Below are positions 1 through 25,452 of a DNA stretch of 64,000 bases, piece after piece. The notes under the pieces were generated by a model. The model ran no database searches and was not told the DNA's origin. It worked only from the letters and a program-made list of their open reading frames with translations. The stretch covers positions 38,564,001-38,628,000 of the forward strand of contig CM126233.1 in the NCBI GenBank assembly GCA_052327205.1, in the 5' to 3' direction. A program made the translations under genes and the position numbers. Position 1 is the first letter of the stretch. Each line of letters opens with the position of its first letter. The stretch is from Somniosus microcephalus (taxonomy: Eukaryota).

Positions 1-1480
1 AGGCAGCTGAAGGCACGGCCGCCAATGGTGGAGCGATTACAATCGGGGTTGCACGAGAGGCCAGAATTGGAGGAGTGCAGAGATCTCGAAGGGTTGTAGG
101 GCTGGAGTTGGTTACAGAGGGGGTGCCATGGACACGGGGTTGTAGGGCTGGAGGAGGTTACAGAGGGGGTGCCATGGACGCGGGGTTGTCAGGCTGGAGT
201 TGGTTACCGAGGGGGTGCCATGGACGCGGGGTTGTCGGGCTGGAGTTGGTTACCGAGGGGGTGCCATGGACACGGGGTTGTCGGGCTGGAGTTGGTTACC
301 GAGGGGGTGCCATGGACGCGGGGTTGTCGGGCTGGAGTTGGTTACAGAGGGGGTGCCATGGATGCGGGGTTGTCGGGCTGGAGGAGGTTACAGAGGGGGT
401 GCCATGGACACGGGGTTGTCGGGCTGGAGTTGGTTACCGAGGGGGTGCCATGGACGCGGGGTTGTCGGGCTGGAGGAGGTTACAGAGGGGGTGCCATGGA
501 CGCGGGGTTGTCGGGCTGGAGTTGGTTACAGAGGGGGTGCCATGGATGCGGGGTTGTCGGGCTGGAGGAGGTTACAGAGGGGGTGCCATGGATGCGGGGT
601 TGTGGGGCTGGAGGAGGTTACAGAGGGGGTGCCATGGATGCGGGGTTGTCGGGCTGGAGGAGGTTACAGAGGGGGTGCCATGGATGCGGGGTTGTCGGGC
701 TGGAGGAGGTTACAGAGGGGGTGCCATGGACGCGGGGTTGTCGGGCTGGAGGAGGTTACAGAGGGGGTGCCATGGACGCGGGGTTGTCGGGCTGGAGGAG
801 GTTACAGAGGGGGTGCCTTGGACGCGGGGTTGTCGGGCTGGAGGAGGTTACAGAGGGGGGTGCCATGGATGCGGGGTTGTCGGGCTGGAGGAGGTTACAG
901 AGGGGGTGCCATGGACGCGGGGTTGTGGGGCTGGAGGAGGTTACAGAGGGGGTGCCATGGACGCGGGGTTGTCGGGCTGGAGGAGGTTACAGAGGGGGTG
1001 TCATGGACGCGGGGTTGTCGGGCTGGAGGAGGTTACAGAGGGGGTGCCATGGACGCGGGGTTATAGGGCTGGAGTTGGTTACAGAGGGGGTGCCTTGGAC
1101 GCGTGGTTGTCGGGCTGGAGGAGGTTACAGAGGGGGTGCCATGGACGCGGGGTTGTCAGGCTGGAGTTGGTTACAGAGGGGGTGCCATGGACGCGGGGTT
1201 GTGGGGCTGGAGGAGGTTACAGAGGGGGTGCCATGGACGCGGGGTTGTCAGGCTGGAGTTGGTTACAGAGGGGGTGCCATGGACGCGGGGTTGTCGGGCT
1301 CGAGTTGGTTACAGAGGGGGTGTCATGGACGCGGATGAGAATTTTGAATTCGAGGTGTTGCCGGACCGGGAGCCAGTGTAGGTCAGAGAGCACGGGCGAT
1401 GGGTGAACGGGACTTGGTGCGAGTTAGGATACCGGTTTTAGATGAGCTTTACGGAGGGTGAAAGCGGGGAGGCCAGCCAG
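1..1480 (-). mobile_element. L2-clade LINE 3' fragment interrupted by internal tandem amplification
   Basis: 1-110 and 1334-1480 are colinear with the L2 copy at 35930-36240, whose minus strand reads LLQPYNP...[17 protein letters not shown]. Confidence 0.8.
91..1333. repeat. 46-bp tandem array, about 27 copies
   Basis: Unit GGGTTGTCGGGCTGGAGGAGGTTACAGAGGGGGTGCCATGGACGCG (catgg recurs at 541 and 587). Confidence 0.97.
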
Positions 1481-1511
1481 GCAAGCTGCACAGGAGGTTC
1501 CTTGTGCTTAC

Positions 1512-1544
1512 CTGTAGTTTTGCAAGTCAAGTTCATCCAAGACA
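1512..1544 (-). CDS. SNX22: SNX22 exon 5 (33-nt micro-exon)
   Basis: Strong acceptor ttccttttctttcag, donor GTAAGC, phase 2-2; (S)[10 protein letters not shown]. An 11-codon exon fits the recalled SNX22/24 sequence at this position. Confidence 0.75.
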
Positions 1545-4500
1545 CTGAAAGAAAAGGAATTATATTAGATCTTAATTGGCTAAGTGACTGGAAACAGAGT
1601 AGTGGTGAACAGTTTTTCAGACTGGAGGAAGGTCTACAGTGGTGTTCCCCAGGGGTCGGTTCTAGGACCACTGCTTTTCGTGATGTATGTTAATGACTTA
1701 GACTTGGGTGTGCAGGGCACAATTTCAAAATTTGCAGATGACATAAAACTTGGAAGTATAGTGAACAGTGAGGAGGATAGTGATAGACTTCAAGAGGACA
1801 GACAGGCTGGTGAAATGGGCAGACACGTGGCAGATGAAATTTAACACAGAAAAGTGCAAAGTGATACATTTTGGTTGAAAGAATTGGGAGAGGAAATATA
1901 AACTAAAGGGGGTGCAAGGACAGAGAGACCTGGGGGTATGTGTGCACAAATCATTGAAGGTGTCAGAGCAGGTTGAGAAAGTAGTTAAAAAAGCTTACAG
2001 GATTCTGGGCTTCATGAATAGAGGTATAGAGTACAAAAGTGTGGAAATTATGATGAACCTTTATAAAACACTGGTTCTGCCCCAACTGGAGTATTGTGTC
2101 CAATTCTGGGCATCGCACTTTAGGAAGGATGTGAGGCCTTAGAGAGGGTGCAGAAAAGATTTACGAGAATGATTCCAGGGATGAGGGACTTCAGTTACGT
2201 GGTTAGACTGGAGAAGCTGGGGTTGTTCTCCTTAGAACAGAGAAGATTACGAGGCGATTTAATAGAGGTGTTCAAAATCACGAGGGGTCTAGACAGAGTA
2301 GATAGAGAGAAACTGTTCCCATTGGCGGAAGGGTCGAGAACCAGAGGACACAGATTCAAGGTGATTGGCAAAAGAACCAAAGGCGACATGAGGAAAAACT
2401 TTTTTACGCAGCGAGTGGTTCAGATCTGGAATGCACTGCCTGAAAGGGCGGTGGAGGCAGATTCAATCCTGGCTTTCAAAAGGGAATTGGATAAGTATCT
2501 GAAGGAAATAAATTTGCAGGGCTACAGGGAAAGGGCGGGGGGGTGGGACTGGCTGAAATGCTCTTGCAGAGAGCCGGCACGGGCTCGACGGGCCTCCTTC
2601 CTTACTGTAACCATTCTATCAGAACAAAGTGACAGAAACAGAAAAACTCCAATCTCTATCACAAATTCTCTTGTCTGCACTACCTTGCTCAGTGCTCTCC
2701 TGAACTTTTCCTCTGTTATTCCTTGGCTCCTGATCCCCCATCCTGTACAATTGTTCCTTCCTAAAGTGTGGTGCCCAGAATTGGACACAATGCTCCAGCT
2801 GGGGCCTAACCAGTAATTTAAAGGTTTAGCAGAACTTCCCTCCTTTTGTACTCTGTGCCTTTATTTATGAAGCCCAGGATCCCGTATGCTTTAACAGCCT
2901 TCTCAACATGTCCTGCCACCTTCAATGATTTGTGTACATATCCCCCAGGTCTCTGTTCCAGCACTCCCTTTAAAATTGTACCCTTTAGTTTATGTTGCCT
3001 CCCCTCACTTCCCTCCATCCTTCCTACAATCTACAGGCGTTTGAAACCCAACTTGGAGATCTCGGAACCACTCCGCCATTTACCCAGATTTCACCTGGGC
3101 ACAGCTGTTACTGGACATCAGAACAGCGCACACTTCAAGTAGACGAGAAAACCATCCAAGGGGCAGAGTCAGGGGAGTCACCACAGACAGGACTGAGATC
3201 GATGGATCTTTGTTGGGTAAACGATGTGGAGCAAAGGTGGGTAAACAGAGTTGAGGAGGCTCGATGGGCTGAATGGCCTCCTGTCCCTGTGTCTATGGCC
3301 AAGGACCTGCTCGACACACACCGGGTCCGACACTTTTGGTTCTTGGACAGTACTGGGCTGCAACATTGCTGCTCCCACACCCCGTCGCACCGTAACCAGA
3401 GCCAGTGCCCCGTCGCACTGTATCCAGAGCCAGTGCCCCGTCGCACTGTATCCAGTGCCCCGTCGCACTGTAACCAGAGCCAGTGCCCCGTCGCACTAAC
3501 CAGAGCCAGTGCCCTGTCGCACTGTATCCAGTGCCCCGTCGCACTGTAACCAGAGCCAGTGCCCCGTCGCACCGTAACCAGAGCCAGTGCCCCGTCGCAC
3601 TGTAACCAGAGCCCCGTCGCACTGTAACCAGTGCCCCGTCGCACTGTAACCAGAGCCAGTGCCCCGTCGCACTGTAACCAGAGCCAGTGCCCCGTCGCAC
3701 TGTAACCAGAGCCAGTGCCCCGTCGCACTGTAACCAGTGCCCCGTCGCACTGTAACCAGAGCCAGTGCCCCGTCGCACTGTAACCAGAGCCAGTGCCCTG
3801 TCGCACTGTAACCAGAGCCAGTGCCCCGTCGCACTGTAACCAGTGCCCCGTCGCACTGTAACCAGAGCCAGTGCCCCGTCGCACTGTAACCAGAGCCCCG
3901 TCGCACTGTAACCAGAGCCAGTGCCCCATCGCACTGTAACCAGAGCCAGTGCCCCGTCGCACTGTAACCAGAGCCCCGTCGCACTGTATCCAGAGCCGGT
4001 GCCCCATCGCACTGTATCCAGAGCCAGTGCCCCGTCGCACTGTAACCAGAGCCGGTGCCCCATCGCACTGTAACCAGAGAGCTGTGGAGGCTGGGTCATT
4101 CAATATATTTGAATATATCCAAAGATGCACGACCCTCAGAGGTGTAGACGGGGAGGGGGGCGGGGGAAAGTGGGCTGTCCGGATTGTTTAAGTAGAGGGA
4201 CAAATATTGGCCAGGACACCAGGGAGAACTCCCCTGCTCTTCTTCGAAATAGTGTCATGGGATCTTTTACCGCCTGGGAGAGCAGACGGGGTCTCGATTT
4301 AACATCTCAGTTTAACGAAAGATGGCCCCTCTGACAGTGCGGCGCTCCCTCAGTACTGCCCCTCTGACAGTGCGGCGCTCCCTCAGTACTGCCCCTCTGA
4401 CAGTGCGGCGCTCCCTCAGTACCGCCCCTCCGACAGTGCGGCGCTCCCTCAGTACTGCCCCTCCGACAGTGCGGCGCTCCCTCAGTACTGCCCCTCCGAC

Positions 4501-7500
4501 AGTGCGGCGCTCCCTCAGTACTGCCCCTCCGACAGTGCGGCGCTCCCTCAGTACTGCCCCTCCGACAGTGCGGCGCTCCCTCAGTACTGCCCCTCCGACA
4601 GTGCGGCGCTCCCTCAGTACTGCCCCTCCGACAGTGCGGCGCTCCCTCAGTACTGCCCCTCTGACAGTGCGGCGCTCCCTCAGTACCGCCCCTCCGACAG
4701 TGCAGCGCTCCCTCAGTACTGTGCCTCCGACAGTGCAGATGCACTCGATGTCCAAAGCCCCAGGAATCCTCTGTTGGCCTGGCACTGGACCACACGTCAC
4801 TCCCGGGAACACGGAGCTGCCATTCCTCGGTGTGGCCACCAGGTGGAGCATTCGGCTTCGTGCAGTAAGTGGGAGATGGGGAAAAGCTCCAACACATCAG
4901 GGTCAAACGATCCCAGGCTTCAAATATAGTTAGTTATTTAGAGTCAAATAATTTGTGACTCTCTAACTGACCCTTCCAAGTCTCTCCGTCATAGGAGCAA
5001 AAGTCGGCCTCTCGAGCCTGCTCTGCCATTCAATAAGACCATGGCTGATCTTCTACCTCATCTCCACCTTCCCGCACTATCCCCATATCCCTTGATTCCC
5101 TTAATATTCAAAAATCTATCGATCTCTGTCTTGAATATACTCGGACTGAGCCTCCACAGCCCTCTGGGGTAGAGAATTCCAAAGATTCACCACCCTCTGA
5201 GTGAAGAAATTTCTCCTCATCTCAGTCCTAAATGGCCGACTCCTTATTCTGAGACTGTGACCCCTGGTTCTAGACTCCCCATTTCTCCTCTTCTAATCAC
5301 CTTATCCACCTCGATTAGATCACTCTTTAATCTTCAGTACACAAGGGATTACAAGCCTGGTCTCTGCAGTCTGTCCCCATATCGATGCCGTTTATCTGTC
5401 CTGCGGGCGTGCTCCCGGTGTCAATAATCAGCCCCGGAAAAGCAGGGAGTTGAATGTAAATGATTCCCAAGATCCAAGAGTGAGGGACTGACCTCAAAGT
5501 GTTTCTCTGCTTTCCGGACGGGATGTGTTTGATGCTGAGGAAGTCGAGGATCTCCCGGGGCACCTGCTGACTGTCACACACGAGGCCCTGTGTCCCAGAG
5601 AGAGAGAGCGGTCAGTGAACACAGGAAGCGTCCCATCTCCCTGCAAACCATTACATTCCCGGGCACACCAACAACATTCCCAGTCATGTTTTTGCGCCGT
5701 GCGGCCCCTTTAACAGGCTGTGCGGCCCATTCAAAATTCCATGCATGCACGGTTCCTTCAGTTTAAAAGCTGGCTCACCAGTTGTGCGGGACCTCGGAGC
5801 AGTGAAAGGAAAAACTGCCCACAATACTCGACCTGGTCACCTCCCCACTGCTTTCAAAACCCTTCTCTTGGGGTGCAGCGCTCCCTCGGTACTGCCCCTC
5901 CGACAGTGCAGCACTCCCTCAGTACTGCCCCTCCGACAGTGCGGCGCTCCCTCAGTACTGCCCCTCCGACAGTGCGGCGCTCCCTCAGTACTGCCCCTCC
6001 GACAGTGCGGCGCTCCCTCAGTACTGCCCCTCCGACAGTGCGGCGCTCCCTCAGTACTGCCCCTCCGACAGTGCGGCACTCCCTCAGTACTGCCCCTCCG
6101 ACAGTGCGGCACTCCCTCAGTACTGCCCCTCCGACAGTGCGGCGCTCCCTCAGTACTGCCCCTCCGACAGTGCGGCACTCCCTCAGTACTGCCCCTCCGA
6201 CAGTGCGGCACTCCCTCGGTACTGCCCCTCCGACAGTGCAGCACTCCCTCAGTACTGCCCCTCCGACAGTGCGGCGCTCCCTCAGTACTGCCCCTCCGAC
6301 AGTGCGGCGCTCCCTCAGTACTGCCTCTCCGACAGTGCGGCGCTCCCTCAGTACTGCCTCTCCGACAGTGCGGCGCTCCCTCAGTACTGCCTCTCCGACA
6401 GTGCGGCGCTCCCTCAGTACTGCCCCTCCGACAGTGCGGCACTCCCTCAGTACTGCCCCTCCGACAGTGCAGCGCTCCCTCAGTACTGCCCCTCCGACAG
6501 TGCGGCGCTCCCTCAGTACTGCCCCTCCGACAGTGCGGCGCTCCCTCAGTACTGCCCCTCCGACAGTGCGGCGCTCCCTCAGTACTGCCCCTCTGACAGT
6601 GCGGCACTCCCTCAGTACTGCCCCTCCGACAGTGCAGCGCTCCCTCAGTACTGCCCCTCCGACAGTGCGGCGCTCCCTCAGTACTGCCTCTCCGACAGTG
6701 CGGCGCTCCCTCAGTACTGCCCCTCCGACAGTGCGGCGCTCCCTCAGTACTGCCCTGGGCCCCTCTCTCTGGGTCTCACCTGTAAATATGCCTCCAATCC
6801 CGTCCTCTTCTGCTCCAGGGCCTTGGGACGCCGATTCAGGCCTCGCTTCGGGGGGAAGTCAGGTGTTTTTGTTGTCTTTTTCAACTGTTGGAAACAGAAA
6901 CAAGAAAAGAGCCTCAACCTGGGAACAGCCAGCCGAGCGAGACCCCTCACAGCAGGGCTGCACCGTGAGGGGGTGCAGAGACAGCCACCGTGGGGCAGGG
7001 AGGGCCCAGCGAGACCCCTCACAGCGGGGCTGCACCGTGAGGGGGTGCAGAGACAGCCACTGTGGGGCAGGGAGGGCACTGCCTTCTACCAACGGACCAT
7101 GATCGTCGTCTACCCCGGGTGAGATGCCCACAACAATGGGGGTAGCGCCCATGCGGTACTGTATGTGGGAGCAAGCCCACCTGTTGCCCCCTCAGCTCCA
7201 TTAGCCGGGGAGACGGGGCTGGGCTGGGTGTTTGTGTGCGGTCACGGGGGGTCAGCTCTATCACCGACTCTGCTGTGTTGTGTTACCGTGCTAATTTTGC
7301 CTGCACTCAAATAAACCTGTAACTCGAGCCCGCTGACAGCACAGGGCTGCAAGTAGGTCTTGCTTCCAAGACATTCCTTCACTGGCACCAGGGTCCCGCA
7401 CTCCCCGGTCACAATCTGCTCGCTGCCAACGTCAGGACTGTTATAACCAGGACCGAGAGCAGCACTGGAATCTGTCCAAAGTCCCGCAGACAGACTGCAG

Positions 7501-10500
7501 GCAAGTGACCTCCCAGGAATGGGCACCACGAACACAGCCAGCTCATCAAACTAAAGGGATTAGTCCGAGAAATGTTAGTGCCAGGGAATGGAACACTCTC
7601 CTACTTTAAACACAGTCGCAATACAGAGCCCACCCAGGGCAGGTACAGCACGGGTTAGATACAGAGTAAAGCTCCCTCTACACTGTCCCATCAAACACTC
7701 CCAGGGCAGGTACAGCACAGGTTAGATACAGAGTAAAGCTCCCTCTACACTGCCCCCTCAAACACTCCCGGGGCAGATACAGCACGGGTTAGATACAGAG
7801 TAAAGCTCCCTCTACACTGTCCCATCAAACACTCCCAGGGCAGGTACAGCACGGGTTAGATACAGAGTAAAGCTCCCTCCACACTGTCCCATCAAACACT
7901 CCCAGGGCAGGTACAGCACGGGTTAGATACAGAGTAAAGCTCCCTCTACACTGCCCCATCAAACACTCCCAGGGCAGGTACAGCACGGGTTAGATACAGA
8001 GTAAAGCTCCCTCTACACTGCCCCATCAAACACTCCCAGGGCAGGTACAGCACGGGTTAGATACAGAGTAAAGCTCCCTCTACACTGTCCCATCAAACAC
8101 TCCCAGGGCAGGTACAGCACGGGTTAGATACAGAGTAAAGCTCCCTCTACACTGCCCCATCAAACACTCCCAGGGCAGGTACAGCACGGGTTAGATACAG
8201 AGTAAAGCTCCCTCTACACTGTCCCATCAAACACTCCCAGGGCAGGTACAGCACGGGTTAGATACAGAGTAAAGCTCCCTCTACACTGTCCCATCAAACA
8301 CTCCCGGGGCAGGTACAGCACGGGTTAGATACAGAGTAAAGCTCCCTCCACACTGTCCCATCAAACACTCCCGGGGCAGGTACAGCACGGGTTAGATACA
8401 GAGTAAAGCTCCCTCTACACTGTCCCATCAAACACTCCCAGGGCAGGTACAGCACGGGTTAGATACAGAGTAAAGCTCCCTCCACACTGTCCCATCAAAC
8501 ACTCCCGGGGCAGGTACAGCACGGGTTAGATACAGAGTAAAGCTCCCTCTACACTGTCCCATCAAACACTCCCAGGGCAGGTACAGCACAGGTTAGATAC
8601 AGAGTAAAGCTCCCTCTACACTGCCCCCTCAAACACTCCCGGGGCAGATACAGCACGGGTTAGATACAGAGTAAAGCTCCCTCTACACTGTCCCATCAAA
8701 CACTCCCAGGGCAGGTACAGCACGGGTTAGATACAGAGTAAAGCTCCCTCTACACTGTCCCATCAAACACTCCCGGGGCAGATACAGCACGGGTTAGATA
8801 CAGAGTAAAGCTCCCTCTACACTGTCCCATCAAACACTCCCGGGGCAGGTACAGCACGGGTTAGATACAGAGTAAAGCTCCCTCTACACTGTCCCATCAA
8901 ACACTCCCAGGGCAGGTACAGCACGGGTTAGATACAGAGTAAAGCTCCCTTTACATTGTCCTATCAAACACTCCCAGGGCAGGTACAGCACGGGTTAGAT
9001 ACAAGGGGTTTCTGCTCCGGACTCACCTTTTTGTGAAGGGCTTGGAAGTCTCGGTACCGACGATCCACCGAGTGCTTCCGCCCATTGGTGAGAACCTCGA
9101 CCCGGAAAACCTGCAACAAGAAACAGTGTTAGTGGCTGCAGCCTCGGGACACGGGGAACTGACCGACTCCGGCCTCGGGGAACTGACCGACTCCGGCCTC
9201 GGGGAACTGACCGACTGCGGCCTCGGGACACGGGGAACTGACCGACTCCGGCCTCGGGGAACTGACCGACTGCGGCCTCGGGGAACTGACCGACCCCGGC
9301 CTCGGGACACAGGGAACTGACCGACTCCGGCCTCGGGGAACTGACCGACTCCGGCCTCGGGACACGGGGAACTGACCGACTCCGGCCTCGGGACACGGGG
9401 AACTGACCGACTCCGGCCTCGGGGAACTGACCGACTCCGGCCTCGGGACACGGGGAACTGACCGACTCCGGCCTCGGGACACGGGGAACTGACCGACTCC
9501 GGCCTCGGGACACGGGGAACTGACCGACTGCGGCCTCGGGGAACTGACCGACTCCGGCCTCGGGCCTCGGGGAACTGACCGACTCGGGCCTCGGGGAACT
9601 GACCCACTCCGGCCTCGGGGAACTGACCCACTCCGGCCTCGGGGAACTGACCCACTCCGGCCTCGGGGAACTGACCCACTCCGGCCTCGGGGAACTGGGA
9701 ACTGACCCACTCCGGCCTCGGGGAACGGGGAACTGACCGACTCGGGCCTCGGGACACAGGGAACTGACCGACTCCGGCCTCGGGGAACTGACCGACTCCG
9801 GCCTCGGGGAACTGACCGACTCCGGCCTCGGGGAACTGACTGACTCCGGCCACGGGGAACTGACCCACTCCGGCCTCGGGGAACGGGGAACTGACCCACT
9901 CCGGCCTCGGGGAACGGGGAACTGACCGACTCGGGCCTCGGGACACAGGGAACTGACCCACTCCGGCCTCGGGGAACTGACCCACTCCGGCCTCCGGGAA
10001 CGGGGAACTGACCGACTCCGGCCTCGGGACACGGGGAACTGACCGACTCCGGCCTCGGGACTCGGGGAACTGACTCACTCCGGCCTCGGGGAACTGACCG
10101 ACTCCGGCCTCGGGGAACTGACCGACTCCGGCCTCGGGACACGGGGAACTGACCGACTCTGGCCTCGGGACACGGGGAACTGACCGACTCCGGCCTCGGG
10201 GAACTGACCGACTCCGGCCTCGGGGAACTGACCGACTCCGGCCTCGGGACACGTGGAACTGACCGACTCCGGCCTCGGGGAACTGACCGACTCCGGCCTC
10301 GGGGAACTGACCGACTCCGGCCTCGGGGAACTGACCGACTCCGGCCTCGGGACACGGGGAACTGACCGACTCCGGCCTCGGGGAACTGACCGACTCCGGC
10401 CTCGGGGAACTGACCGACTCCGGCCTCGGGGAACTGACCGACTCCGGCCTCGGGACACGGGGAACTGACCGACTCCGGCCTCGGGACACGGGGAACTGAC

Positions 10501-13500: not shown

Positions 13501-16500
13501 TGAAGCCCATCACCAACTTGTGCCTCTTAGCCACCCTTGCACTGACGGTGGGAAGTCAACAGCAGCTAATGAACAGACTGAGAGAATCAGATCAAATTTG
13601 CATCAAATTGGCTTCATTCCAAACACAGATTCTCCTTTATAACTCAAATACAGTACATGGTGTTGCCATGGTTACAGGCAATGTCTTACAACGTGGTGTT
13701 GCTATGGTTACGTCCCATCTGTGCAAATAAAGATTCTTCACTAAACAAGCTCTGTATATGCGAGTGTTTGGATTGGGCGGTTTTAAACTTCCTCAGAAAA
13801 TCGAGCAAATCCCTTATCTTTGCACCAGACACACTCACCGTAGTCACACACTCACCATCGCACGCTCACCGTGCAGTCACACACTCACCATCGCACGCTC
13901 ACCGTGCTGTTACGCACTNNNNNNNNNNNNNNNNNNNNNNNNNNNNNNNNNNNNNNNNNNNNNNNNNNNNNNNNNNNNNNNNNNNNNNNNNNNNNNNNNN
14001 NNNNNNNNNNNNNNNNNNNNNNNNNNNNNNNNNNNNNNNNNNNNNNNNNNNNNNNNNNNNNNNNNNNNNCACTCACCACCGCACGCTCACCGTACAGTCA
14101 CACACTCACCATCGCACGCTCACCGTGCAGTCACACACTCACCATCGCACGCTCACCATGCTGTTACACACTCACCATCGCACGCTCACCGTGCAGTCAC
14201 ACACTCACCATCGCACGCTCACCATGCTGTTACACACTCACCATCGCACGCTCACCGTGCAGTCACACACTCACCATCGCACGCTCACCATGCAGTCACA
14301 TGCTCACCATCGCACGCTCACCATGCAGTCACACGCTCACCATCGCACGCTCACCGTGCAGTCACACACTCACCATCGCACGCTCACCATGCTGTTACAC
14401 ACTCACCATCGCACGCTCACCGTGCAGTCACACTCACCATCGCACGCTCACCATGCTGTTACACGCTCACCATCGCACGCTCACCGTGCAGTCACACACT
14501 CACCATCGCACGCTCACCATGCTGTTACACACTCACCATCGCACGCTCACTGTGCAGTCACACACTCACCATCGCACGCTCACCGTGCTGTTACACACTC
14601 ACTCCCACACACTCACCGTGCAGTCACACACTCGCTCCCACANNNNNNNNNNNNNNNNNNNNNNNNNNNNNNNNNNNNNNNNNNNNNNNNNNNNNNNNNN
14701 NNNNNNNNNNNNNNNNNNNNNNNNNNNNNNNNNNNNNNNNNNNNNNNNNNNNNNNNNNNNNNNNNNNNNNNNNNNNNNNNNNNNNNNNNNNNNCACTCAC
14801 TCCCACACACTCACCGTACAGTCACACACTCACTCCCACACTCGCCGTGCCGTTACACACTCACTCCCACACACTCGCCATGCCGTTACACACTCACCAT
14901 CGCACACTCAGCTCTGCAGACCAGTGTGAATATGAAAACATTTCAAACCCTTTAGAACACTAGAATTTCCAGAGTAAGAAGTGGAAAGCTCGTCCCCTTT
15001 AACAGGACCCCATTTAGTCTCCTTCAGTCGCTCTCCCCACAAACAAATCCCATTGTCTCTTCACCCCATTGCCACTGTTTCTCACCCAGCTCGATTATCT
15101 TCCTTACTCCTCACTTCCTAACGTTTGTATATGAAAAAGAAAAGACTGACGAAGGTAAATGTAGGTCCTTTACAGTCAGAGATGAGAGAATTTATAATGG
15201 GGAATGAGGAAATGGCTGAGAAATTAAATAAATACTTTGTTTCTGTCTTCACGGAGGAAGACACAAAAAACCTCCCAGAAATACGAGAAAACCAAGGGTT
15301 TGGCGAGAATGAGGAACTTAAAGAAATTATTATTAGTAAACAAACAGTACTAGCAAAATTAATGGGACTAAAAGTCAATAAATCCCAAGGACCGGATGAC
15401 CTACATCCTAGAGTTTTGAAAGAGGTGGCCATTGGGATAGTGGACGCATTGGTTGTCATCTTCCAAAATTCTATAGATTCTGGAACGGTTCCTGCAGATT
15501 GGAGGATAGCAAGTGTAACCCTGCTATTTAAGAAAGGAGGGAGAGAGAAAACGGGGAACTACAGACCTGTTAGCCTCACATCAGTAGTTGGGAAAATGCT
15601 GGAATCTATTATAAAGGATGTAATAACTGGGCACTTAGAAACTAATCGTAAGATTGGGCAGTCAACATGGATTTATGAAAGGGAAATCCTGTTTGACAAA
15701 CCTATTGACGTTCTTTGAGGATGTAACTAGTGGAGTAGACAAAGGGGAACCGGTAGATGTGGTGTATCTGGATTTTCAGAAGGCCTTCGATAAGGTCCCA
15801 CACAAGAGGTTGGTGAACAAAATTAGGACACATGGAATTGGGGGTAATATATTAGCATGGATTGAGAATTGGTTAACAGACCGAAAACAAAGAGTAGGGA
15901 TAAACGGGTCTTTTTCAGGATGGCAGGCTGTGACGAGTGGGGTACCGCAAGGATCGGTGCTTGGGCCCCAGCTATTCACAATCTATATCAATGATTTGGA
16001 TGAGGGGACTAAATGTAACATTTCCAAATTTGCTGATGATACAAAGCTAGGTGGCAGTGTCAGATGCAAAGAGGATATGAAGAGGCTTCAAGGGGATCTC
16101 GACAGGCTCAGTGAGTGGGCGAGAACATGGCAGATGGAATATAATGTGGATAAATGAGAAGTTATCCACTTTGGTAGAAAAAACAGAAAGGCAGAGTATT
16201 TCCTAAATGGTGAAAGATTGGGGAATGCAGATGCTCAAAGGGATCTGGGTGTCTTTGTACACGAGTCACTGAAAGTGAATGTGCAGGTGCAGCAAGTCAT
16301 TAGGAAGGCAAATGGTATACTGGCCTTCATTACAAGAGGATTTGAGTACAGGAGTAAAGAAGTCTTACTCCAATTATATAGGGACTTGGTGAGACCACAC
16401 CTGGAGTACTGTGTACCATTTTGGTCTCCTTACCTATGGAAGGATATACTTGCCATAGAGGGAGTGCAACGAAGGTTCACCAGACTGATTCCTGGGATGG

Positions 16501-18145
16501 CGGGACTGTCGTATGAGAAGAGATTGAGTAAACTAGGCCTGTATTCTCTTGAATTCAGAAGAATGAGAGGGGATCTCATTGAAGCATACAAAATTATTAC
16601 AGGGCTTGATAGGATGGATGCTGGGAGAATGTTTCCCTTGGCTGGGGAGTCTAGAACCAGGGGCCACAGTCTCAGGATAAGGGGTCGGCCATTCAGGACT
16701 GAGATGAGGAGAAATTTCTTCACACAGAGGGTGGTGAATCTTTGGAATTCTCTACCCCAGAGGGCTGTGGAGGCTCAGTCATTGGGTATATTCAAAACAG
16801 AGGTTGATAGATTTCTGACTAGTAAGGGCATCAAGGGATACGGAGATAGGGCCGGTGAATGGAGTTGAGGCAGAAGATCAGCCATGATCTCATTGAATGG
16901 CGGAGCAGGCTCGAGGGGCCGAATGGTCTACTCCTGTTCCTATTTCTTATGTTCGGACTTGCATCCCGTGGGATTCTGAAGCATTCACCACAATGCACAC
17001 TGGACCGGTTTTATGATTATTAAGGGAAATTACAAAATCACTGGATCACTGCACTGATCCTCCTGCCACTACCAACACTTTGCACCTCTCTCCCTGTGCT
17101 GCTTGCCCTCCACTCCGCCGAGTATAGGCTGTGAGGCTATTCCATCATGTGGGGCATCGCAATCAACCTGCTTATGTCCTCACCAGATCTCAGCAATCTC
17201 CAAAATCATCCTCCCTGGCTCATCACCCTCTCCAGCCCAGGGCTCTGAGACCAATTGTCCCAACTCCTGTCCTGGAATATGATCACTGAACTCACTATAG
17301 ACAGGGACCATTATCAGAGTCACAGATACAGAATGAATCCCACACTCTCACACAAGTACCAGAGACTGACAGATACAGAATGTAAGAAATGTTCATCCAG
17401 ATCCCACACATGCATCACTACACAACCGGCAACCAACCCTGGACACACAGACACACACAGAGACAGACACACATAGACACAGACTGACGGATAGACAGAC
17501 ACACACAGCCTGACTGCTGGGACGAGTATTGACGGGGGGGTTACCGAGCACGGGTGGCCCGGGGTTGGTGTCTGACCCCCCGGGGAGAATGAGACTGTGC
17601 TGCTCCCCCCGGTTGAACAGCTGTCCGGGTTTACCGAGTCCCGGCGGGGGGAGCTCCGCCTGTCCCTTTAAATGGGCAAACCCAGCGGAGCGGCCCCTTT
17701 AACAGAAGCTGCAGAGAATCAACATCCAGAGACCGACACCCTCCCCCCGGGCACCCGGGGACTCTCTCTCCCCCCGGGACTCTCTCTCCCCCCGGGACCC
17801 TCTCTCTCTCTCTCTCGCTCCCCCCGGGGGACCCGCACCCTCTCTCCGGGACCCTGTCTCCCCGAGCACCCTCTCTCTCTCTCCCCCCCGGACCCCTGTC
17901 TCTCTCCCCCGGGGACTCTCTCTCTCTCTCGCTCCCCCAGACCCCCCCTCTCTCTCTCTCTCTCTCCCTCTCCCCCCGGGGGACCCGCACCCTCCCCCCG
18001 GGGGACCCGCACCCTCTCCCCGGGACCCTGTCTCCCCGGGCACCCTCTCTCTCCCCCCGGACCCCCTCTCTCTCTCCCCGGGCACTCTCTCTCTCTCTCT
18101 CTCCCTCCCCCGGGGCACTCTCTCTCTCTCTCTCCCCCGGGGCAC

Positions 18146-18183
<38 letters not shown>

Positions 18184-18275
18184 CCGGGACCCTCTCCTCC
18201 TCCGCTCACCGTGTGCACTTTCTCCGAGTCTCCGCTCGCCTCCTGCCCGATGGACGGGATCCGAACCGCGATCAT
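1512..18275 (-). CDS. SNX22: Sorting nexin-22 (PX-only SNX), coding exons 1-5; 3' exons outside window
   Basis: Exons 18275-18210, 9110-9027, 6884-6780, 5587-5493 and 1544-1512 are all GT-AG and phase-compatible. They give [127 protein letters not shown], which matches the SNX22/SNX24 PX domain. IPSxG-E, VFRVEVL, PDFPxKR, GLEAY, QxVPxE and the position downstream of SNX1 favour SNX22. Confidence 0.9.
1562..2620 (+). mobile_element. CR1 LINE, 5'-truncated and degraded
   Basis: [39 protein letters not shown] spread over several frames, plus a 3'UTR. Confidence 0.92.
2690..3010 (-). mobile_element. CR1 fragment
   Basis: [31 protein letters not shown]; inverted relative to 1900-2110. Confidence 0.85.
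3378..4078. repeat. 28/22-bp tandem array
   Basis: Unit CCAGTGCCCCGTCGCACTGTAACCAGAG with 22-bp deletion variants. Confidence 0.97.
4195..4330 (-). mobile_element. Deu-domain SINE fragment running into the 33-bp array
   Basis: aaatattggccaggacacc...aaatagtg-catgggatctttta matches the SINE at 58285-58440. Confidence 0.8.
4326..4738. repeat. 33-bp SINE-derived tandem array, about 12 copies
   Basis: Unit CCCCTCCGACAGTGCGGCGCTCCCTCAGTACTG. Confidence 0.97.
4990..5280 (-). mobile_element. CR1 (HER1-like) 3' end
   Basis: Reverse complement of the gaagatcagccatg...ggagcaggctcgag tail and the [17 protein letters not shown] region. Confidence 0.85.
5493..5587 (-). CDS. SNX22: SNX22 exon 4 (95 nt)
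   Basis: Acceptor ctctctgggacacag, donor GTCAGT; [31 protein letters not shown] plus AG (phase 2). Confidence 0.88.
5873..6752. repeat. 33-bp SINE-derived tandem array, about 26 copies
   Basis: Same unit as 4326-4738; ends about 27 bp from SNX22 exon 3. Confidence 0.97.
6780..6884 (-). CDS. SNX22: SNX22 exon 3 (105 nt)
   Basis: Acceptor tttccaacag, donor GTGAGA; [35 protein letters not shown]. Confidence 0.93.
6936..7077. repeat. 72-bp direct tandem duplication (2 copies)
   Basis: agcgagacccctcacagc...ggggcagggagggc starting at 6936 and 7008. Confidence 0.9.
7632..9003. repeat. 67-bp tandem array, about 20 copies
   Basis: Unit CCCAGGGCAGGTACAGCACGGGTTAGATACAGAGTAAAGCTCCCTCTACACTGTCCCATCAAACACT. 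Confidence 0.97.
9027..9110 (-). CDS. SNX22: SNX22 exon 2 (84 nt)
   Basis: Acceptor cttgttgcag, branch point CACTAAC at 9134-9128, donor GTGAGT; [28 protein letters not shown] (PX RRY motif). Not in the ORF track. Confidence 0.93.
9141..13092. repeat. 24/31-bp CpG-rich tandem array (about 3.95 kb)
   Basis: Unit GGGGAACTGACCGACTCCGGCCTC with or without a 7-bp insert (GGGACAC or GGGGAAC). Confidence 0.97.
13108..13341 (+). mobile_element. Deu-domain SINE, 3' half
   Basis: ggtgtcctgg-ccaatatttat...ctggtcattatcacattgctgtttg...gaaaggcgctacagaaatgcaagtc, as at 58820-59000. Confidence 0.85.
13829..14905. repeat. 33-bp CA-rich tandem array with two N gaps
   Basis: Unit CACACTCACCATCGCACGCTCACCGTGCAGTCA; N runs at 13919-14069 and 14643-14793. 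Confidence 0.93.
15120..16954 (+). mobile_element. CR1 (HER1-like) LINE, 5'-truncated, nearly complete RT region with a frameshift and a stop
   Basis: [58 protein letters not shown]; frameshift near 15660, stop at about 16157; 3' tail to 16954. Confidence 0.95.
17736..18200. repeat. (CT)n / CCCCGGGG low-complexity degenerate repeat
   Basis: Polypyrimidine on +, interleaved with recurrent cccccgggggacccgcaccctctc units. Confidence 0.9.
18210..18275 (-). CDS. SNX22: SNX22 coding exon 1 (66 nt)
   Basis: ATG at 18275 with G at -3, in-frame TGA at 18299-18297 upstream, donor GTGAGC; [22 protein letters not shown]. Confidence 0.88.
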
Positions 18276-18334
18276 CCCGAATCCCGGAGTGAAGCTTCAC
18301 TGAGCCTGAGCCTGACCCCGCCTCCCGCACACCC

Positions 18335-21300
18335 GGCACTGACACTGACCAACCCGGGCCAGGCACTGACCAACCCGGGGCCAGGCACTGACCAACCCGG
18401 GGCCAGACTCTGACCAACCCGGGGCCAGGCACTGACCAACCCGGGGCCAGGCTCTGACCAATCCGGGGCCAGGCACTGACCAACCCGGGGCCAGGCACTG
18501 ACCAACCCGGGGCCAGGCACTGACCAACCCGGGGCCAGACTCTGACCAACCCGGGCCAGGCACTGACCAACCCGGGGCCAGGCTCTGGCCAACCCGGGGC
18601 CGGGCACTGACCAACCCGGGCCCGGGCACTGACCAACCCGGGGCCGGGCTCTGACCAACCCGGGGCCGGGCACTGACCAACCCGGGGCCGGGCACTGACC
18701 AACCCGGGGCCGGGCTCTGACCAACCCGGGGCCGGACTCTGACCAACCCGGGGCCAGGCACTGACCAACCCGGGGCCAGGCTCTGACCAACCCGGGGCCG
18801 GACTCTGACCAACCCGGGGCCAGGCACTGACCAACCCGGGGCCAGGCTCTGACCAACCCGGGGCCAGGCTCTGACCAACCCGGGGCCAGGCACTGACCAA
18901 CCCGGGGCCAGGCACTGACCAACCCGGGGCCAGGCACTGACCAACCCGGGGCCAGACACTGACCAACCCGGGGCCAGGCACTGACCAACCCGGGCCAGAC
19001 ACTGACCAACCCGAGGCTGGGCACTGACCAACCCGGGGCCGGGCACTGTCCAACCCGGGGCCGGGCACTGACCAACCCGGGCCAGACACCGACCAACCCG
19101 GGGACAGACTCTGACCAACCCGGGGCCAGGCACTGACCAACCCGGGGCCAGACACTGACCAACCCGGGGCCAGACTCTGACCAACCCGGGGCCGGACACT
19201 GACCAACCCGGGGCCAGGCACTGACCAACCCGGGGCCAGGCTCTGACCAACCCGGGCCAGGCACTGACCAACCCGGGGCCGGACACTGACCAACCCAGGG
19301 CCAGGCACTGGCCAACCCGGGGCCAGACCCTGACCAACCCGGGCCAGGCACTGACCAACCCGGGGCCAGGCACTGACCAACCCGGGGCCAGACTCTAACC
19401 AACCCAGGGCCAGACTCTGACCAACCCGGGACCAGACTCTGACCAACCCGTGGCCAGACTCTGACCAACGGGGCCAGGCACTGACCAACCTGGGGCCAGA
19501 CTCTGACCAACCCGGGACAAAGACACTGACCAAGCCAGGGCCAGACACTGACCAACCCAGGGCCAGGCACTGACCAACCCGGGGCCAGACACTGACCAAC
19601 CCGGAGCCGGGCACTGACCAACCCAGGGCCTAGCACTGACCAACCCGGGGCCAGACACTGACCAACCATGGCCAGACTCTGACCAACCCGGGGCCAGACA
19701 CTTCCAAGCCAGGGCCAGACACTGACCAATCCGGGCCAGACACTGACCAACCCGGGGCCAGACACTGACCAACCCGGGCCAGACACTGACCAACCCGGGC
19801 CAGACACTGACCAACCCGGGCCAGACACTGACCAACCCGGGGCCACTGACCAACCCGAGGCCAGACACTGACCAACCCGGGCCAGACACTGACCAACCGT
19901 GCCAGACACTGACCAACCCAGGCCAGACACTGACCAACCGGGCCAGACACTGACCAACCCGGGGCCAGACACTGACCAACCCGGGGCCGGACACTGACCA
20001 ACCCGGGGCCAGACTCTGACCAACCCGGGGCCAGACACTGACCAACCCGGGGCCGGGCACTGACCAACCCGGGGCCAGACACTTCCAAGCCAGGGCCAGA
20101 CACTGACCAATCCGGGCCAGACACTGACCAACCCGGGGCCAGACACTGACCAACCCGGGGCCAGACACTGACCAACCCGGGCCAGACACTGACCAACCCG
20201 GGCCAGACACTGACCAACCCGGGGCCACTGACCAACCCGAGGCCAGACACTGACCAACCCGGGCCAGACGCTGACCAACCGTGCCAGACACTGACCAACC
20301 CGGGGCCAGGCACTGACCAACCCGGGCCCGGGCACTGACCAACCCGGGGCCGGGCTCTGACCAACCCGGGGCCGGGCTCTGACCAACCCGGGGCCGGGCA
20401 CTGACCAACCCGGGGCCGGGCACTGACCAACCCGGGGCCGGGCACTGACCAACCCGGGGCCGGGCACTGACCGGGCCGGGCACTGACCAACCCGGGGCCG
20501 GGCACTGACCAACCCGGGGCCGGGCACTGACCAACCCGGGGCCGGGCTCTGACCAACCCGGGGCCGGACTCTGACCAACCCGGGGCCGGACTCTGACCAA
20601 CTCGGGGCCAGGCGCTGACCAACCCAGGGCCAGGCACTGACCAACCCGGGGCCAGGCACTGACCAACCGGGCCAGACACTGACCAACCCAGGCCAGACAC
20701 TGACCAACCGGGCCAGACACTGACCAACCCGGGGCCAGACACTGACCAACCCGGGGCCGGACACTGACCAACCCGGGGCCAGACTCTGACCAACCCGGGG
20801 CCAGACACTGACCAACCCGGGGCCGGGCACTGACCAACCCGGGGCCAGACACTTCCAAGCCAGGGCCAGACACTGACCAATCCGGGCCAGACACTGACCA
20901 ACCCGGGGCCAGACACTGACCAACCCGGGCCAGACACTGACCAACCCGGGCCAGACACTGACCAACCCGGGGCCACTGACCAACCCGAGGCCAGACACTG
21001 ACCAACCCGGGCCAGATGCTGACCAACCGTGCCAGACACTGACCAACCCAGGCCAGACACTGACCAACCCGGGCCAGACACTGACCAACCCAGGGCCGGA
21101 CACTGACCAATCTGGGCCAGACACTGACCAACCCAGGGACACTGACCAACCCGAGGCCACTGACCAACCCGGGCCGGGCACTGACCAACCCGGGGCCAGA
21201 CACTGACCAAGCCGGGGCCACTGACCAACCCGGGCCGGACACTGACCAACCCAGGGCCAGACACTGACCAACCCGGGGCCAGACACTGACCAACCCGGGG

Positions 21301-24300
21301 CCAGACACTGACCAACCCGGGGCCAGACACTGACCAACATGGGCCAGACACTGTCCAACCCGGGCCAGACACTGACCAACCCGGGGCCAGACACTGACCA
21401 ACATGGGCCAGACACTGTCCAACCCGGGCCAGACACTGACCAACCCGGGGCCAGACACTGACCAACCCGGGCCGGACACTGACCAACCCAGGGCCACTGA
21501 CCAACCCAGGGCCACTGACTAACCCGGGGCCAGTCTCTGACCAACCAAGGGCCACTGACCAACCCAGGGCCAGACACTGACCAACCCGGGACCACTGACC
21601 AACCCAGGGCCACTGACTAACCCGGGGCCAGACTCTGACCAACCCGGGGCCACTGACCAACCCAGGGCCGGACACTGACCAATCTGGGCCAGACACTGAC
21701 CAACCCGGGGACACTGACCAACCCGAGGCCACTGACCAACCCGGGCCGGGCACTGACCAACCCGGGGCCAGACACTGACCAACCCGGGGCCACTGACCAA
21801 CCCGGGCCAGACACTGACCAACCCAGGGCCACTGACTAACCCGGGGCCAGACTCTGACCAACCCGGGGCCACTGACCAACCCAGGGCCGGACACTGACCA
21901 ATCCGGGCCAGACACTGACCAACCCGGGGCCACTGACCAACTCAGGGCCACTGACCAACCCAGGGCCAGACACTGACCAACCCGGGGCCAGACACTGACC
22001 AACCCGGGGCCAGACACTGACCAACCCGGGGCCAGACACTGACCAACACGGGCCAGACACTGACCAACATGGGCCAGACGCTGACCAACCCAGGCCAGAC
22101 ACTGACCAACCCGGGGCCAGACACTGACCAACCCAGGGCCAGACACTGACCAACCCGGGGCCAGACACTGACCAACACGGGCCAGACACTGACCAACATG
22201 GGCCAGACACTGACCAACCCAGGCCAGACACTGACCAACCCGGGGCCAGACACTGACCAACCCGGGCCGGACATTGACCAACCCGGAGCCAGACACTGAC
22301 CAACCCAGGGCCACTGACCAACCGAGGGCCAATGACTAACCCGGGGCCAGACTCTGACTAACCCGGGGCCACTGACCAACCCAGGGCCGGACACTGACCA
22401 ATCCGGGCCAGACACTGACCAACCCGGGGACACTGACCAACCCGAGGCCACTGACCAACCCGGGCCGGGCACTGACCAACCCGGGGCCAGACACTGACCA
22501 ACCCGGGGCCACTGACCAACCCGGGCCAGACACTGACCAACCCAGGGCCACTGACTAACCCGGGGCCAGAATCTGACCAACACGGGGCCACTGACCAACC
22601 CAGGGCCGGACACTGACCAACCCGGGCCGGACACTGACCAACCCGGGGCCAGACACTGACCAACCCGGGGCCATTGACTAACCCAGGGCCACTGACTAAC
22701 CCGGGGCCAGACTCTGACCAACCCAGTGCCGGACACTGACCAATCCGGGCCAGACACTGACCAACCCGGGGACACTGACCAACCCGAGGCCACTGACCAA
22801 CCCGGGCCGGGCACTGACCAACCCGGGGCCAGACACTAACCAACCCGGGGCCAGACACTGACCAACCCGGGGCCACTGACCAACCCAGGGCCACTGACTA
22901 ACCCGGGGCCACTGACCAACCCAGGGCCGGACACTGACCAATCCGGGCCAGATACTGACCAACCCGGGGCCATTGACCAACTCAGGGCCACTGACCAACC
23001 CGGGGCCAGACACTGACCAACCCGGGGCCAGACACTGACCAACCCGGGGCCAGACACTGACCAACCCGGGGCCAGATACTGACCAACCCGGGGCCAGACA
23101 CTGACCAACACGGGCCAGACACTGACCAACCCAGGGCCGGACACTGACCAATCCGGGCCAGACACTGACCAACCCGGGGACACTGACCAACCCGAGGCCA
23201 CTGACCAACCCGGGCCGGGCACTGACCAACCCGGGCCGGGCACTGACCAACCCAGGGCCAGACACTGACCAACCCGGGGCCAGACACTGACCAACCCGGG
23301 GCCACTGACCAACCCAGGGCCACTGACTAACCCAGGGCCAGACTCTGACCAACCCGGGGCCACTGACCAACCCAGGGCTGAACACTGACCAACCCGGGGC
23401 CACTGACCAACCCGGGGCCAGACACTGACCAACCCGGGGCCAGACACTGACCAACCCGGGGCCAGACACTGACCAACCCGGGGCCAGATACTGACCAACC
23501 CGGGGCCAGACACTGACCAACCCAGGGCCGGACACTGACCAATCCGGGCCAGACACTGACCAACCCGGGGACACTGACCAACCCGAGGCCACTGACTAAC
23601 CCGGGCCGGGCACTGACCAACCCGGGGCCAGACACTGACCAACCCGGGCCAGACACTGACCAACCCAGGGCCACTGACTAACCCGGGGCCAGACTCTGAC
23701 CAACCCGGGGCCACTGACCAACCCGGGCCGGGCACTGACCAACCCAGGGCCACTGACCAAACCGGGCCAGACTCTGACCAACCCGGGGACGGGCACTGAC
23801 CAACCTGGGCCAGACACTGACCAACCCGGGCCGGGCACTGACCAACCCGGGGACGGGCACTGACCAACCCGGGCCGGGCACTGACCAACCCGGGCCGGGC
23901 ACTGACCAACCCGGGGCCAGACTCTGACCAACCCAGGGCCACTGACCAACCCGGGCCAGACTCTGACCAACCTGGGCCAGACACTGACCAACCCGGGGAC
24001 ACTGACCAACCCGAGGCCACTGACCAACCCGGGGCCAGACACTAACCAACCCGGGGCCAGACACTGACCAACCCGGGGCCACTGACTAACCCGGGGCCAC
24101 TGACCAACCCAGGGCCGGACACTGACCAATCCGGGCCAGACACTGACCAACCCGGGGCCATTGACCAACTCAGGGCCACTGACCAACCCGGGGCCAGACA
24201 CTGACCATCCCAGGGCCAGACACTGACCAACCCGGGGCCAGACACTGACCAACCCGGGGCCAGACACTGACCAACCCGGGGCCAGATACTGACCAACCCG

Positions 24301-25452
24301 GGGCCAGACACTGACCAACACGGGCCAGACACTGACCAACCCAGGGCCGGACACTGACCAATCCGGGCCAGACACTGACCAACCCGGGGACACTGACCAA
24401 CCCGAGGCCACTGACCAACCCGGGCCGGGCACTGACCAACCCAGGGCCAGACACTGACCAACCCGGGGCCAGACACTGACCAACCCGGGGCCACTGACCA
24501 ACCCAGGGCCACTGACTAACCCAGGGCCAGACTCTGACCAACCCGGGGCCACTGACCAACCCAGGGCTGAACACTGACCAACCCGGGGCCACTGACCAAC
24601 CCGGGGCCAGACACTGACCAACCCGGGGCCAGACACTGACCAATCCGGGCCAGACACTGACCAACCCGGGGACACTGACCAACCCGAGGCCACTGACTAA
24701 CCCAGGGCCACTGACTAACCCAGGGCCAGACACTGACCAACCCGGGGCCACTGACCAACCCAGGGCCACTGACTAACCCAGGGCCAGACTCTGACCAACC
24801 CGGGGCCACTGACCAACCCAGGGCTGAACACTGACCAACCCGGGGCCACTGACCAACCCGGGGCCAGACACTGACCAACCCGGGGCCAGACACTGACCAA
24901 TCCGGGCCAGACACTGACCAACCCGGGGACACTGACCAACCCGAGGCCACTGACCAACCCAGGGCCGGACACTGACCAATCCGGGCCAGACACTGACCAA
25001 CCCGGGGACACTGACCAACCCGAGGCCACTGACTAACCCGGGCCGGGCACTGACCAACCCGGGGCCAGACACTGACCAACCCGGGGCCACTGACCAACCC
25101 GGGCCAGACACTGACCAACCCAGGGCCACTGACTAACCTGGGGCCAGACTCTGACCAACCCGGGGCCACTGACCAACCCGGGCCGGGCACTGACCAACCC
25201 AGGGCCACTGACCAAACCGGGCCAGACTCTGACCAACCTGGGGACGGGCACTGACCAACCTGGGCCAGACACTGACCAACCCGGGCCGGGCACTGACCAA
25301 CCCGGGGACGGGCACTGACCAACCCGGGCCGGGCACTGACCAACCCGGGGCCAGACTCTGACCAACCCAGGGCCACTGACCAACCCGGGCCAGACTCTGA
25401 CCAACCTGGGCCAGACACTGACCAACCCGGGCCGGGTACTGACCAACCCGGG
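18335..25452. repeat. 18-22-bp GC-rich satellite, about 7.1 kb, directly upstream of SNX22
   Basis: Core ACTGACCAACCCGGGGCC with AGAC, AGGC, GGGC or no spacer; over 300 units estimated from length. Confidence 0.97.

Follow-up and report, generated by a model that had tools for sequence, protein, structure and literature searches.

An intact SNX22 gene in a distal belt of minisatellite arrays of Somniosus microcephalus

The stretch of DNA analysed here (the window) comprises 64,000 nucleotides of the shark Somniosus microcephalus (NCBI GenBank assembly GCA_052327205.1, contig CM126233.1; G000:C32:38,564,001-38,628,000) and is located on scaffold C32 (41.9 Mb) of a 6.45-Gb genome. It contains five exons of the gene SNX22, which stand between tandem repeat arrays, and, to the right of these, SNX1. 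An earlier note on this DNA (the original prediction) had described SNX22 as an intact gene in a localised, sharply bounded domain of many unrelated satellites. The gene is intact, and it lies in a distal, GC-rich belt of minisatellites extending over several megabases, in which the arrays have probably grown by unequal crossing-over and gene conversion at sites of concentrated recombination.

SNX22 is located on the minus strand and consists of seven exons, of which exons 6 and 7 lie approximately 235-915 bases to the left of the window (L001:9704-9765 and 9087-9223). The frame is open over 193 codons, and GT-AG borders are present at every intron. The predicted integrity, splice signals and frame are therefore correct, and the predicted number of five exons is two short. 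Junctions in the raw RNA reads of run X22, checked against the window, join exon 2 to exon 3 and exon 2 to exon 1 (Table 1), indicating that splicing spans both a 67-bp array and a 3.9-kb 24/31-bp array. RNA supports joints 1-2 and 2-3, and joints 3-4, 4-5 and 5-6 rest on splice signals and frame. The X22 depth over exons 6-7 and the 3' untranslated region (UTR) is one-stranded and is low in intron 6. Approximately ten X22 reads on the strand of the gene fall in the 24/31-bp intron array (9140-9215) and are probably unspliced pre-mRNA. The raw-read run X21 contains zero reads on the SNX22 exons and is no test of expression. In the 3' UTR (L001:8719 and 9015), a substitution and a 3-base insertion are common to runs X1, X3 and X22 and missing from the assembly, which is either in error here or represents a different allele.

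Exons 2 and 3 match the structures 2ETT (SNX22) and 4AZ9 (SNX24) about equally, so that SNX22 and SNX24 are not separable by sequence alone and the neighbouring genes decide. To the left stands a cyclophilin whose best match is PPIB (121 bits versus 107 for PPIC), and the right neighbour is best matched by SNX1, with no SNX2 entry among the hits. The resulting gene order is the same as SNX1-SNX22-PPIB, which we take to be the human order. One other SNX22 paralogue is present in the genome (C1:150.85 Mb). The type of PX domain, the synteny, the frame and the spliced exons 1-3 identify the gene as an intact SNX22 orthologue.

Arrays detected with Tandem Repeats Finder (TRF) occupy 67.0% of positions 1-25,452 (17,059 bases) versus 4.2% of the sequence to the right (1,624 of 38,548 bases). 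Distinct arrays in introns 1-5 and upstream of the gene, together about two thirds of the first 25.5 kb, had been predicted and were found in these places. They make up 57, 71, 74 and 28% of SNX22 introns 1-4, respectively, and 82% of the part of intron 5 in the window. Two single-locus arrays, with units of 24/31 and 22 bp, contribute 11 of the 17 kb of array sequence, and the cover without them is 42%. Four SNX22 splice sites are approached to 23-41 bases and the ATG to 66 bases, and none of these is overlapped; exon 2 is a 148-base island with an array on either side. Given the 7.1-kb single-locus array upstream of the ATG, the promoter or 5' UTR of SNX22 (region 18276-25452) is probably situated within or against a variable number tandem repeat (VNTR). 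SNX1, which had been predicted to carry only one large array, also contains a short array of the 67-bp family.

The units had also been called satellites. The window arrays span 0.15-7.1 kb, which is below the tens to hundreds of kb of classical large-block satellites, and they are minisatellites. The GC content is 0.64-0.71 in the 46-, 28-, 24/31- and 22-bp arrays and in both 33-bp arrays of introns 3 and 4, while the 67-bp array (0.53) and the CA-rich array (0.58) are below the >60% that characterizes GC-rich VNTRs. All are within the distance from a chromosome end (<~5 Mb) typical of subtelomeric GC-rich VNTRs. The CA-rich array is interrupted by two 151-base N runs, the content of which cannot be judged.

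Table 1. Exons of SNX22 and tandem repeat arrays in the window
Feature	Position	Strand	Evidence and remarks
46-bp array, 27 copies, SNX22 intron 5, inside the 3' part of a LINE ORF2 fragment	91..1334		TRF; LINE comparison
SNX22 exon 5, 33 bp	1512..1544	-	AG/GT; frame open on through exons 6-7
28/22-bp array, intron 4	3380..4079		TRF; absent from all other fetched loci (80 searched)
33-bp array, 12.5 copies, inside a SINE copy, intron 4	4325..4736		One-sided SINE flank, 106 bases, 10% diverged
SNX22 exon 4	5493..5587	-	AG/GT; open frame
33-bp array, 27 copies, intron 3, stops 24 bases from exon 3 donor	5873..6755		TRF; neither side SINE-flanked
SNX22 exon 3, PX domain	6780..6884	-	AG/GT; top PDB match SNX22 2ETT, E 6e-7; 35 RNA reads splice to exon 2
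72-bp duplication, two copies, intron 2	6932..7077		TRF
67-bp array, 20.5 copies, intron 2, stops 23 bases from exon 2 donor	7633..9003		Genome-wide family
SNX22 exon 2, PX domain	9027..9110	-	AG/GT; matches SNX22 and SNX24 PX domains; X22 RNA depth 18-39, exon only
24/31-bp single-locus array, 3.9 kb, intron 1	9152..13094		Genome matches 35/35 at this locus
CA-rich 33-bp array, intron 1	13830..14909		TRF; no match in other loci
CT-rich degenerate 16-34-bp repeats, stop 28 bases from exon 1 donor	17754..18181		TRF
SNX22 exon 1 (coding part, ATG at 18275)	18210..18275	-	GT donor; 7 RNA reads (run X22) splice to exon 2
22-bp single-locus array, 7.1 kb, starts 66 bases upstream of ATG	18341..25452		Genome matches 28/28 here; TRF
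67-bp family array, 3.4 copies, SNX1 intron	38282..38505		TRF; same family as SNX22 intron 2 array
31-bp array, SNX1 intron	49343..50555		TRF; no match in other loci
LINE, long interspersed nuclear element; ORF, open reading frame; SINE, short interspersed nuclear element.

The surroundings of the window were studied by applying TRF to 10-kb samples, in which some arrays are clipped at the sample ends or counted twice. The window and its flanks form 264 contiguous kb, and the array cover is 21.8% in the 120 kb to the left (12 samples), including PPIB introns, and 17.3% in the 80 kb to the right (8 samples). The 26 samples of C32 that lie less than 8 Mb from an end have a mean cover of 28.7%, versus 2.3% for the 14 interior samples (p 6e-4). 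Matched samples were taken at 3.3 Mb from both ends of the 20 largest scaffolds (C1-C20). Here, 37 of the 40 samples carry at least one array of at least 200 bases (mean cover 39.7%, median 29.8%), whereas this holds for 3 of 20 interior samples (median 1.5%; p 9e-7). A cover of at least 50% is found in 15 of the 40 distal samples. The GC content of these samples is 0.51 distally versus 0.46 in the interior, which bears on recombination only indirectly. A uniform genome-wide density of arrays, named by the original prediction as the outcome that would speak against it, was thus not seen.

With distance from the end, the median cover on ten scaffolds (20 samples each) changes from 16% at 1 Mb to 41% at 3.3 Mb and then to 9% at 9 Mb, and it is 1.1% at 15 Mb or more (56 samples, 20 of them from the contiguous paralogue locus). 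The 200 kb around the paralogue at C1:150.8 Mb have a cover of 1.7%. The belt therefore fades gradually, over about 10 Mb. The cover also seems to peak some megabases inside the end, when the samples at 1 Mb (L161-L180) are compared with those at 3.3 Mb (L081-L120; p 0.08). The window is located 3.27 Mb from the end of C32, inside the belt, which agrees with the predicted subtelomere-like character. The last 10 kb of C32 (L060) consist of a 50-bp satellite with no tandem telomere repeats; the telomere is not in the assembly, and the true distance may exceed 3.27 Mb. The suggested microchromosome-like character is not supported, since the interior of C32 is poor in arrays and a belt of this kind also marks the ends of the largest scaffolds. 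The SNX22 introns are thus unexceptional for the repeat-rich belt that most large chromosomes carry near their ends.

Several observations weigh against this reading. In the outer 10 Mb at the right end of C5, the cover averages 3.9% (8 samples), although 23% is reached in the sample taken at 3.3 Mb, and the interior sample L064 is entirely satellite. The rarer of two junction types of the 33-bp unit (see below) forms clusters inside C1 at approximately 256.46, 320.5, 327.3 and 369.5 Mb, which hold 21 of the first 100 matches listed; these may be old end-to-end fusion sites, as described for frogs. In addition, the role of recombination as the driver is drawn by analogy with other genomes. Finally, no other 25 kb within the 264 kb are as dense in arrays as positions 1-25,452, and positions 25,452-78,754 contain only two arrays of at least 200 bases. 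This local contrast between SNX22 and SNX1 is real.

The contrast is also what the original prediction had built on in proposing an instability domain specific to SNX22, with a sharp limit at about 25.5 kb, and the position of the densest 25 kb beside 53 kb with two arrays would fit such a domain. However, both flanks are filled with arrays, the 67% cover is within the range of the matched distal samples, the apparent edge is the end of one 7.1-kb array in a belt that fades over megabases, and the 67-bp family occurs on either side of it. A domain confined to SNX22 is therefore largely refuted and, in our view, very unlikely. The SNX22 peak and the SNX1 trough are likely to be patchiness inside the belt.

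It was also considered whether the arrays could be expansions made by the assembly. The 24/31-bp array holds an imperfect internal duplication of 1.42 kb, and the 67- and 22-bp arrays hold shorter ones. In addition, the words of the 24/31-bp array are present at about 6-7 copies in DNA run X3 versus 25-36 in the assembly. However, none of the window arrays contains an exact internal repeat longer than 320 bases. Because the 24/31- and 22-bp arrays are each confined to a single locus, word depth can be compared with assembled copies. In run X1, the depth of 24/31-bp words corresponds to approximately 34 copies (445/13.2) versus 35.8 assembled and approximately 30 (398/13.2) versus 25 assembled. 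These depths are rough, contig depth is not copy number, and X1 may be the source of the assembly itself. Run X3 is labelled as a different organism, and the difference between X3 and X1 fits true length variation as well. Furthermore, tandem joints of the 33- and 67-bp units are plentiful in both X1 and X3. Assembly expansion is the least probable of the explanations considered here, and we regard it as extremely unlikely. Tandem 33- and 67-bp units (L001:8613-8686 and 9534-9570) also occur in RNA, at a depth of thousands versus 30-40 on the SNX22 exons; these reads derive from many loci, and their strand bias is opposite between the two RNA runs.

The 151 distal arrays group into 97 families, of which 84 are singletons, while the 33-bp family has 26 members and the 67-bp family 14. 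The proposal of many unrelated seeds thus holds for most families, and it fails for the 33-, 67- and 46-bp arrays, which go back to families spread over the genome or to dispersed retroelements. For the 33-bp unit, the source is a dispersed SINE, of which it forms a part, and 53 single copies with the same flanks were found. A tRNA-like head is located approximately 30 bases from the seed in one of four loci (ARAGORN, relaxed threshold). The host SINE may resemble SacSINE1, a Deu-domain SINE. Among 160 loci and the window, the seed is single in 34 and tandem in 0 interior cases and single in 19 and tandem in 34 distal cases (p 9e-11). After the addition of 40 loci, the tandem share is 3/6 at 0-2 Mb, 28/38 at 2-5 Mb, 9/27 at 5-10 Mb and 0/27 beyond 10 Mb; in these numbers, an array clipped at the edge of a sample or interrupted by an insertion may have been counted twice. 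The terminal units run on into SINE sequence upstream in 17 of 24 arrays and downstream in 16 of 28. Two near-identical copies of a SINE with a 33-bp array stand 5.4 kb apart in L052 (~4040 and ~9400) and are probably a local segmental duplication.

The 46-bp unit derives from a LINE, presumably of the L2 clade. Its monomer seeds are located 615 and 964 nt downstream of the YADD motif of the reverse transcriptase in L094 and L157, as found by a motif scan of LINE frames that contain stops. Nearby LINE copies have given rise to 36- and 40-bp units that end at other positions, suggesting that the units arose locally and independently of each other. The LINE seed is single in 10 and tandem in 0 interior cases and single in 19 and tandem in 10 distal cases (p 0.04). 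In the 67-bp family, a single consensus recurs in 15 arrays from 7 scaffolds, whose flanks are unrelated and whose phase varies, and the unit has 146,424 exact matches in the genome. A search for a host element of this unit yielded only diverged single copies of approximately 60-75 bases (L062 and L126). Its origin may be LF-SINE-like.

The 33-bp arrays are much more alike than their hosts. The consensuses of 28 of 30 arrays are identical at 26 sites, and 7 of the 53 monomers carry this consensus, indicating that the arrays are not clones of local monomers. Slippage at the 4-base direct repeat of the SINE would give a junction that is present in 6 of 1,284 units, whereas a one-base variant is present in 853. 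Genome-wide, exact matches number 3,247 for the expected junction and 248,695 for the derived one, making the former 77-fold rarer. On these counts, independent slippage from each local SINE monomer was rejected as the source of the arrays.

A possible explanation of the shared junction, although a doubtful one, is a SINE subfamily that carried a short 33-bp tandem and was retrotransposed, with copies inserted or retained mainly in distal regions and expanded locally, free of any exchange between loci. A single origin would account for the derived junction, most arrays retain the SINE in register on one or both sides, and SINEs carrying short internal duplications are known, as described in the accessible part of PMC10702118. 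On the other hand, none of the 27 seeds beyond 10 Mb is tandem. The SINE flanks are approximately 10% diverged for arrays and monomers alike (p 0.81 upstream and 0.16 downstream) and are scattered in the flank tree, and the array consensuses contain almost no private fixed changes. Moreover, a host element is lacking for the intron 3 array (5873-6755) and for most of the 67-bp arrays. A search of the flank tree for an array-bearing subfamily gave no clade, with 8 changes versus 7.6 after shuffling, at low power. The diverged, ungrouped flanks and the flankless intron 3 array favour, without proving it, exchange between distal loci over a retrotransposing subfamily. Three points count against exchange: the flank tree is star-like and has little power, with only 8 arrayed among 54 copies with both flanks; five downstream flank columns differ nominally (best p 0.008), none of them fixed; and the lower divergence of array units (3.1% versus 5.7% for monomers at non-CpG sites) is not significant (p 0.24).

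Alternatively, the shared units could amplify through their own sequence, such as a protein-bound or structure-forming motif, with position being secondary. The 33- and 67-bp units (4325-4736 and 7633-9003) align over a 19-base C-rich stretch with 16 matches, the top of 200 shuffles for one of 45 pairs, and the 24/31- and 22-bp units are weakly alike (p 0.03, uncorrected). However, the same seed is single in interior DNA, and most distal families are singletons. Growth driven by G-quadruplexes was rejected, as the pattern is missing from 8 of the 9 window arrays. Overall, amplification driven by the unit itself appears unlikely.

Growth by distal recombination probably followed two routes. By analogy with other genomes, recombination concentrated near the ends would drive unequal exchange and conversion. 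In the first route, local duplication at a chance seed would lead to single-locus VNTRs, such as the 24/31-, 22-, 28/22- and CA-rich 33-bp arrays, and LINE copies would be separately carved into 36-, 40- and 46-bp units. In the second route, the 33- and 67-bp units would spread among chromosome ends and be kept alike, likely via ectopic conversion or templated repair, with the 33-bp unit expanding within SINE copies solely where these are distal. Selection likely purges arrays that hit exons or about 20 bases of splice signal and tolerates intron length, which would leave the exons as islands. A more speculative extension, put forward only tentatively, is that the 33- and 67-bp units propagate themselves as 'homing' minisatellites, in which ectopic repair copies one derived unit into old, diverged SINEs and, at chromosome ends, into unrelated sites. 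They could then form a concertedly evolving pool of at least 18 Mb across most chromosome ends, in which the conversion of a SINE would be set by its distance from the telomere.

Comparable systems have been described, and the following comparisons refer to the accessible parts of the cited papers. In Xenopus tropicalis, extended subtelomeres of approximately 30 Mb with mapped, concentrated recombination have been reported (10.1101/2021.10.18.464293 = PMC10794172). A 52-bp minisatellite of this frog derives from SINE/tRNA-V, which is present genome-wide, and the fragment is expanded in subtelomeric copies only (10.1101/2021.10.18.464293). The shark shares the multi-megabase distal belts of tandem repeats, the raised GC content and the arrays made from SINE and LINE parts. 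It differs in that the belt is approximately 7-10 Mb, recombination is deduced rather than mapped, the unit is located just behind the tRNA-like head instead of in the 3' tail, and the sampled distal cover reaches approximately 40%.

The squamate sSat (PMC10702118) likewise consists of a portion of a SINE, with terminal units running into the SINE, a subtelomeric bias and one variant that is homogeneous within and between loci. The 33-bp arrays have all of these features, except that the intron 3 array is without flanks. In contrast to sSat, another SINE family and taxon are involved, the shark arrays often keep both SINE flanks, which is a minor variant in PMC10702118, and at least 248,695 units (at least 8 Mb) are present in the shark. 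In humans, GC-rich VNTRs are 21-fold enriched in subtelomeres (PMC7608644). The shark arrays resemble these in GC content (>60%), unit length (>15 bp), distance from the ends (<5 Mb) and the presence of many arrays per intact gene, as in PTPRN2. Unlike in humans, roughly one in four of the distal arrays sampled in the shark (40/151) belongs to one of two multi-locus families.

In sharks, chromosome ends have been reported to be higher in GC, with gradual positional clines, and simple tandem repeats to be more abundant in shorter chromosomes (PMC10620051, PMC13100897). The higher GC at the ends and the gradual change with distance agree with our data; minisatellite families or a SINE/LINE origin are not described in the accessible parts of these papers. 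Simple tandem repeats of the zebra shark are plotted there over a range of 0-25%, a different measure (RepeatMasker, 100-kb windows). The PRDM9 status in sharks is unsettled (PMC5519329, accessible part). A literature search, with most subscription journals outside its reach, yielded no account of these minisatellite families of the shark.

The SNX22 locus itself is of small import, being an ordinary intact gene in distal DNA, and its context is the useful part. A very large shark genome with approximately 40% tandem repeat some 3 Mb from its ends extends the pattern of frogs and squamates to sharks, and the belt could serve as a proxy, read from sequence alone, for sites of possible recombination. 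The presence of the 33-bp seed as both single copies and arrays genome-wide makes retrotransposition versus ectopic conversion, a long-standing question about the spread of minisatellite families among loci, directly testable. Such belts also matter practically for genome assembly and gene annotation. A LINE-derived 36-bp array on the minus strand (L010:2451-4016) contains a 522-codon open frame and is a likely source of a false gene call.

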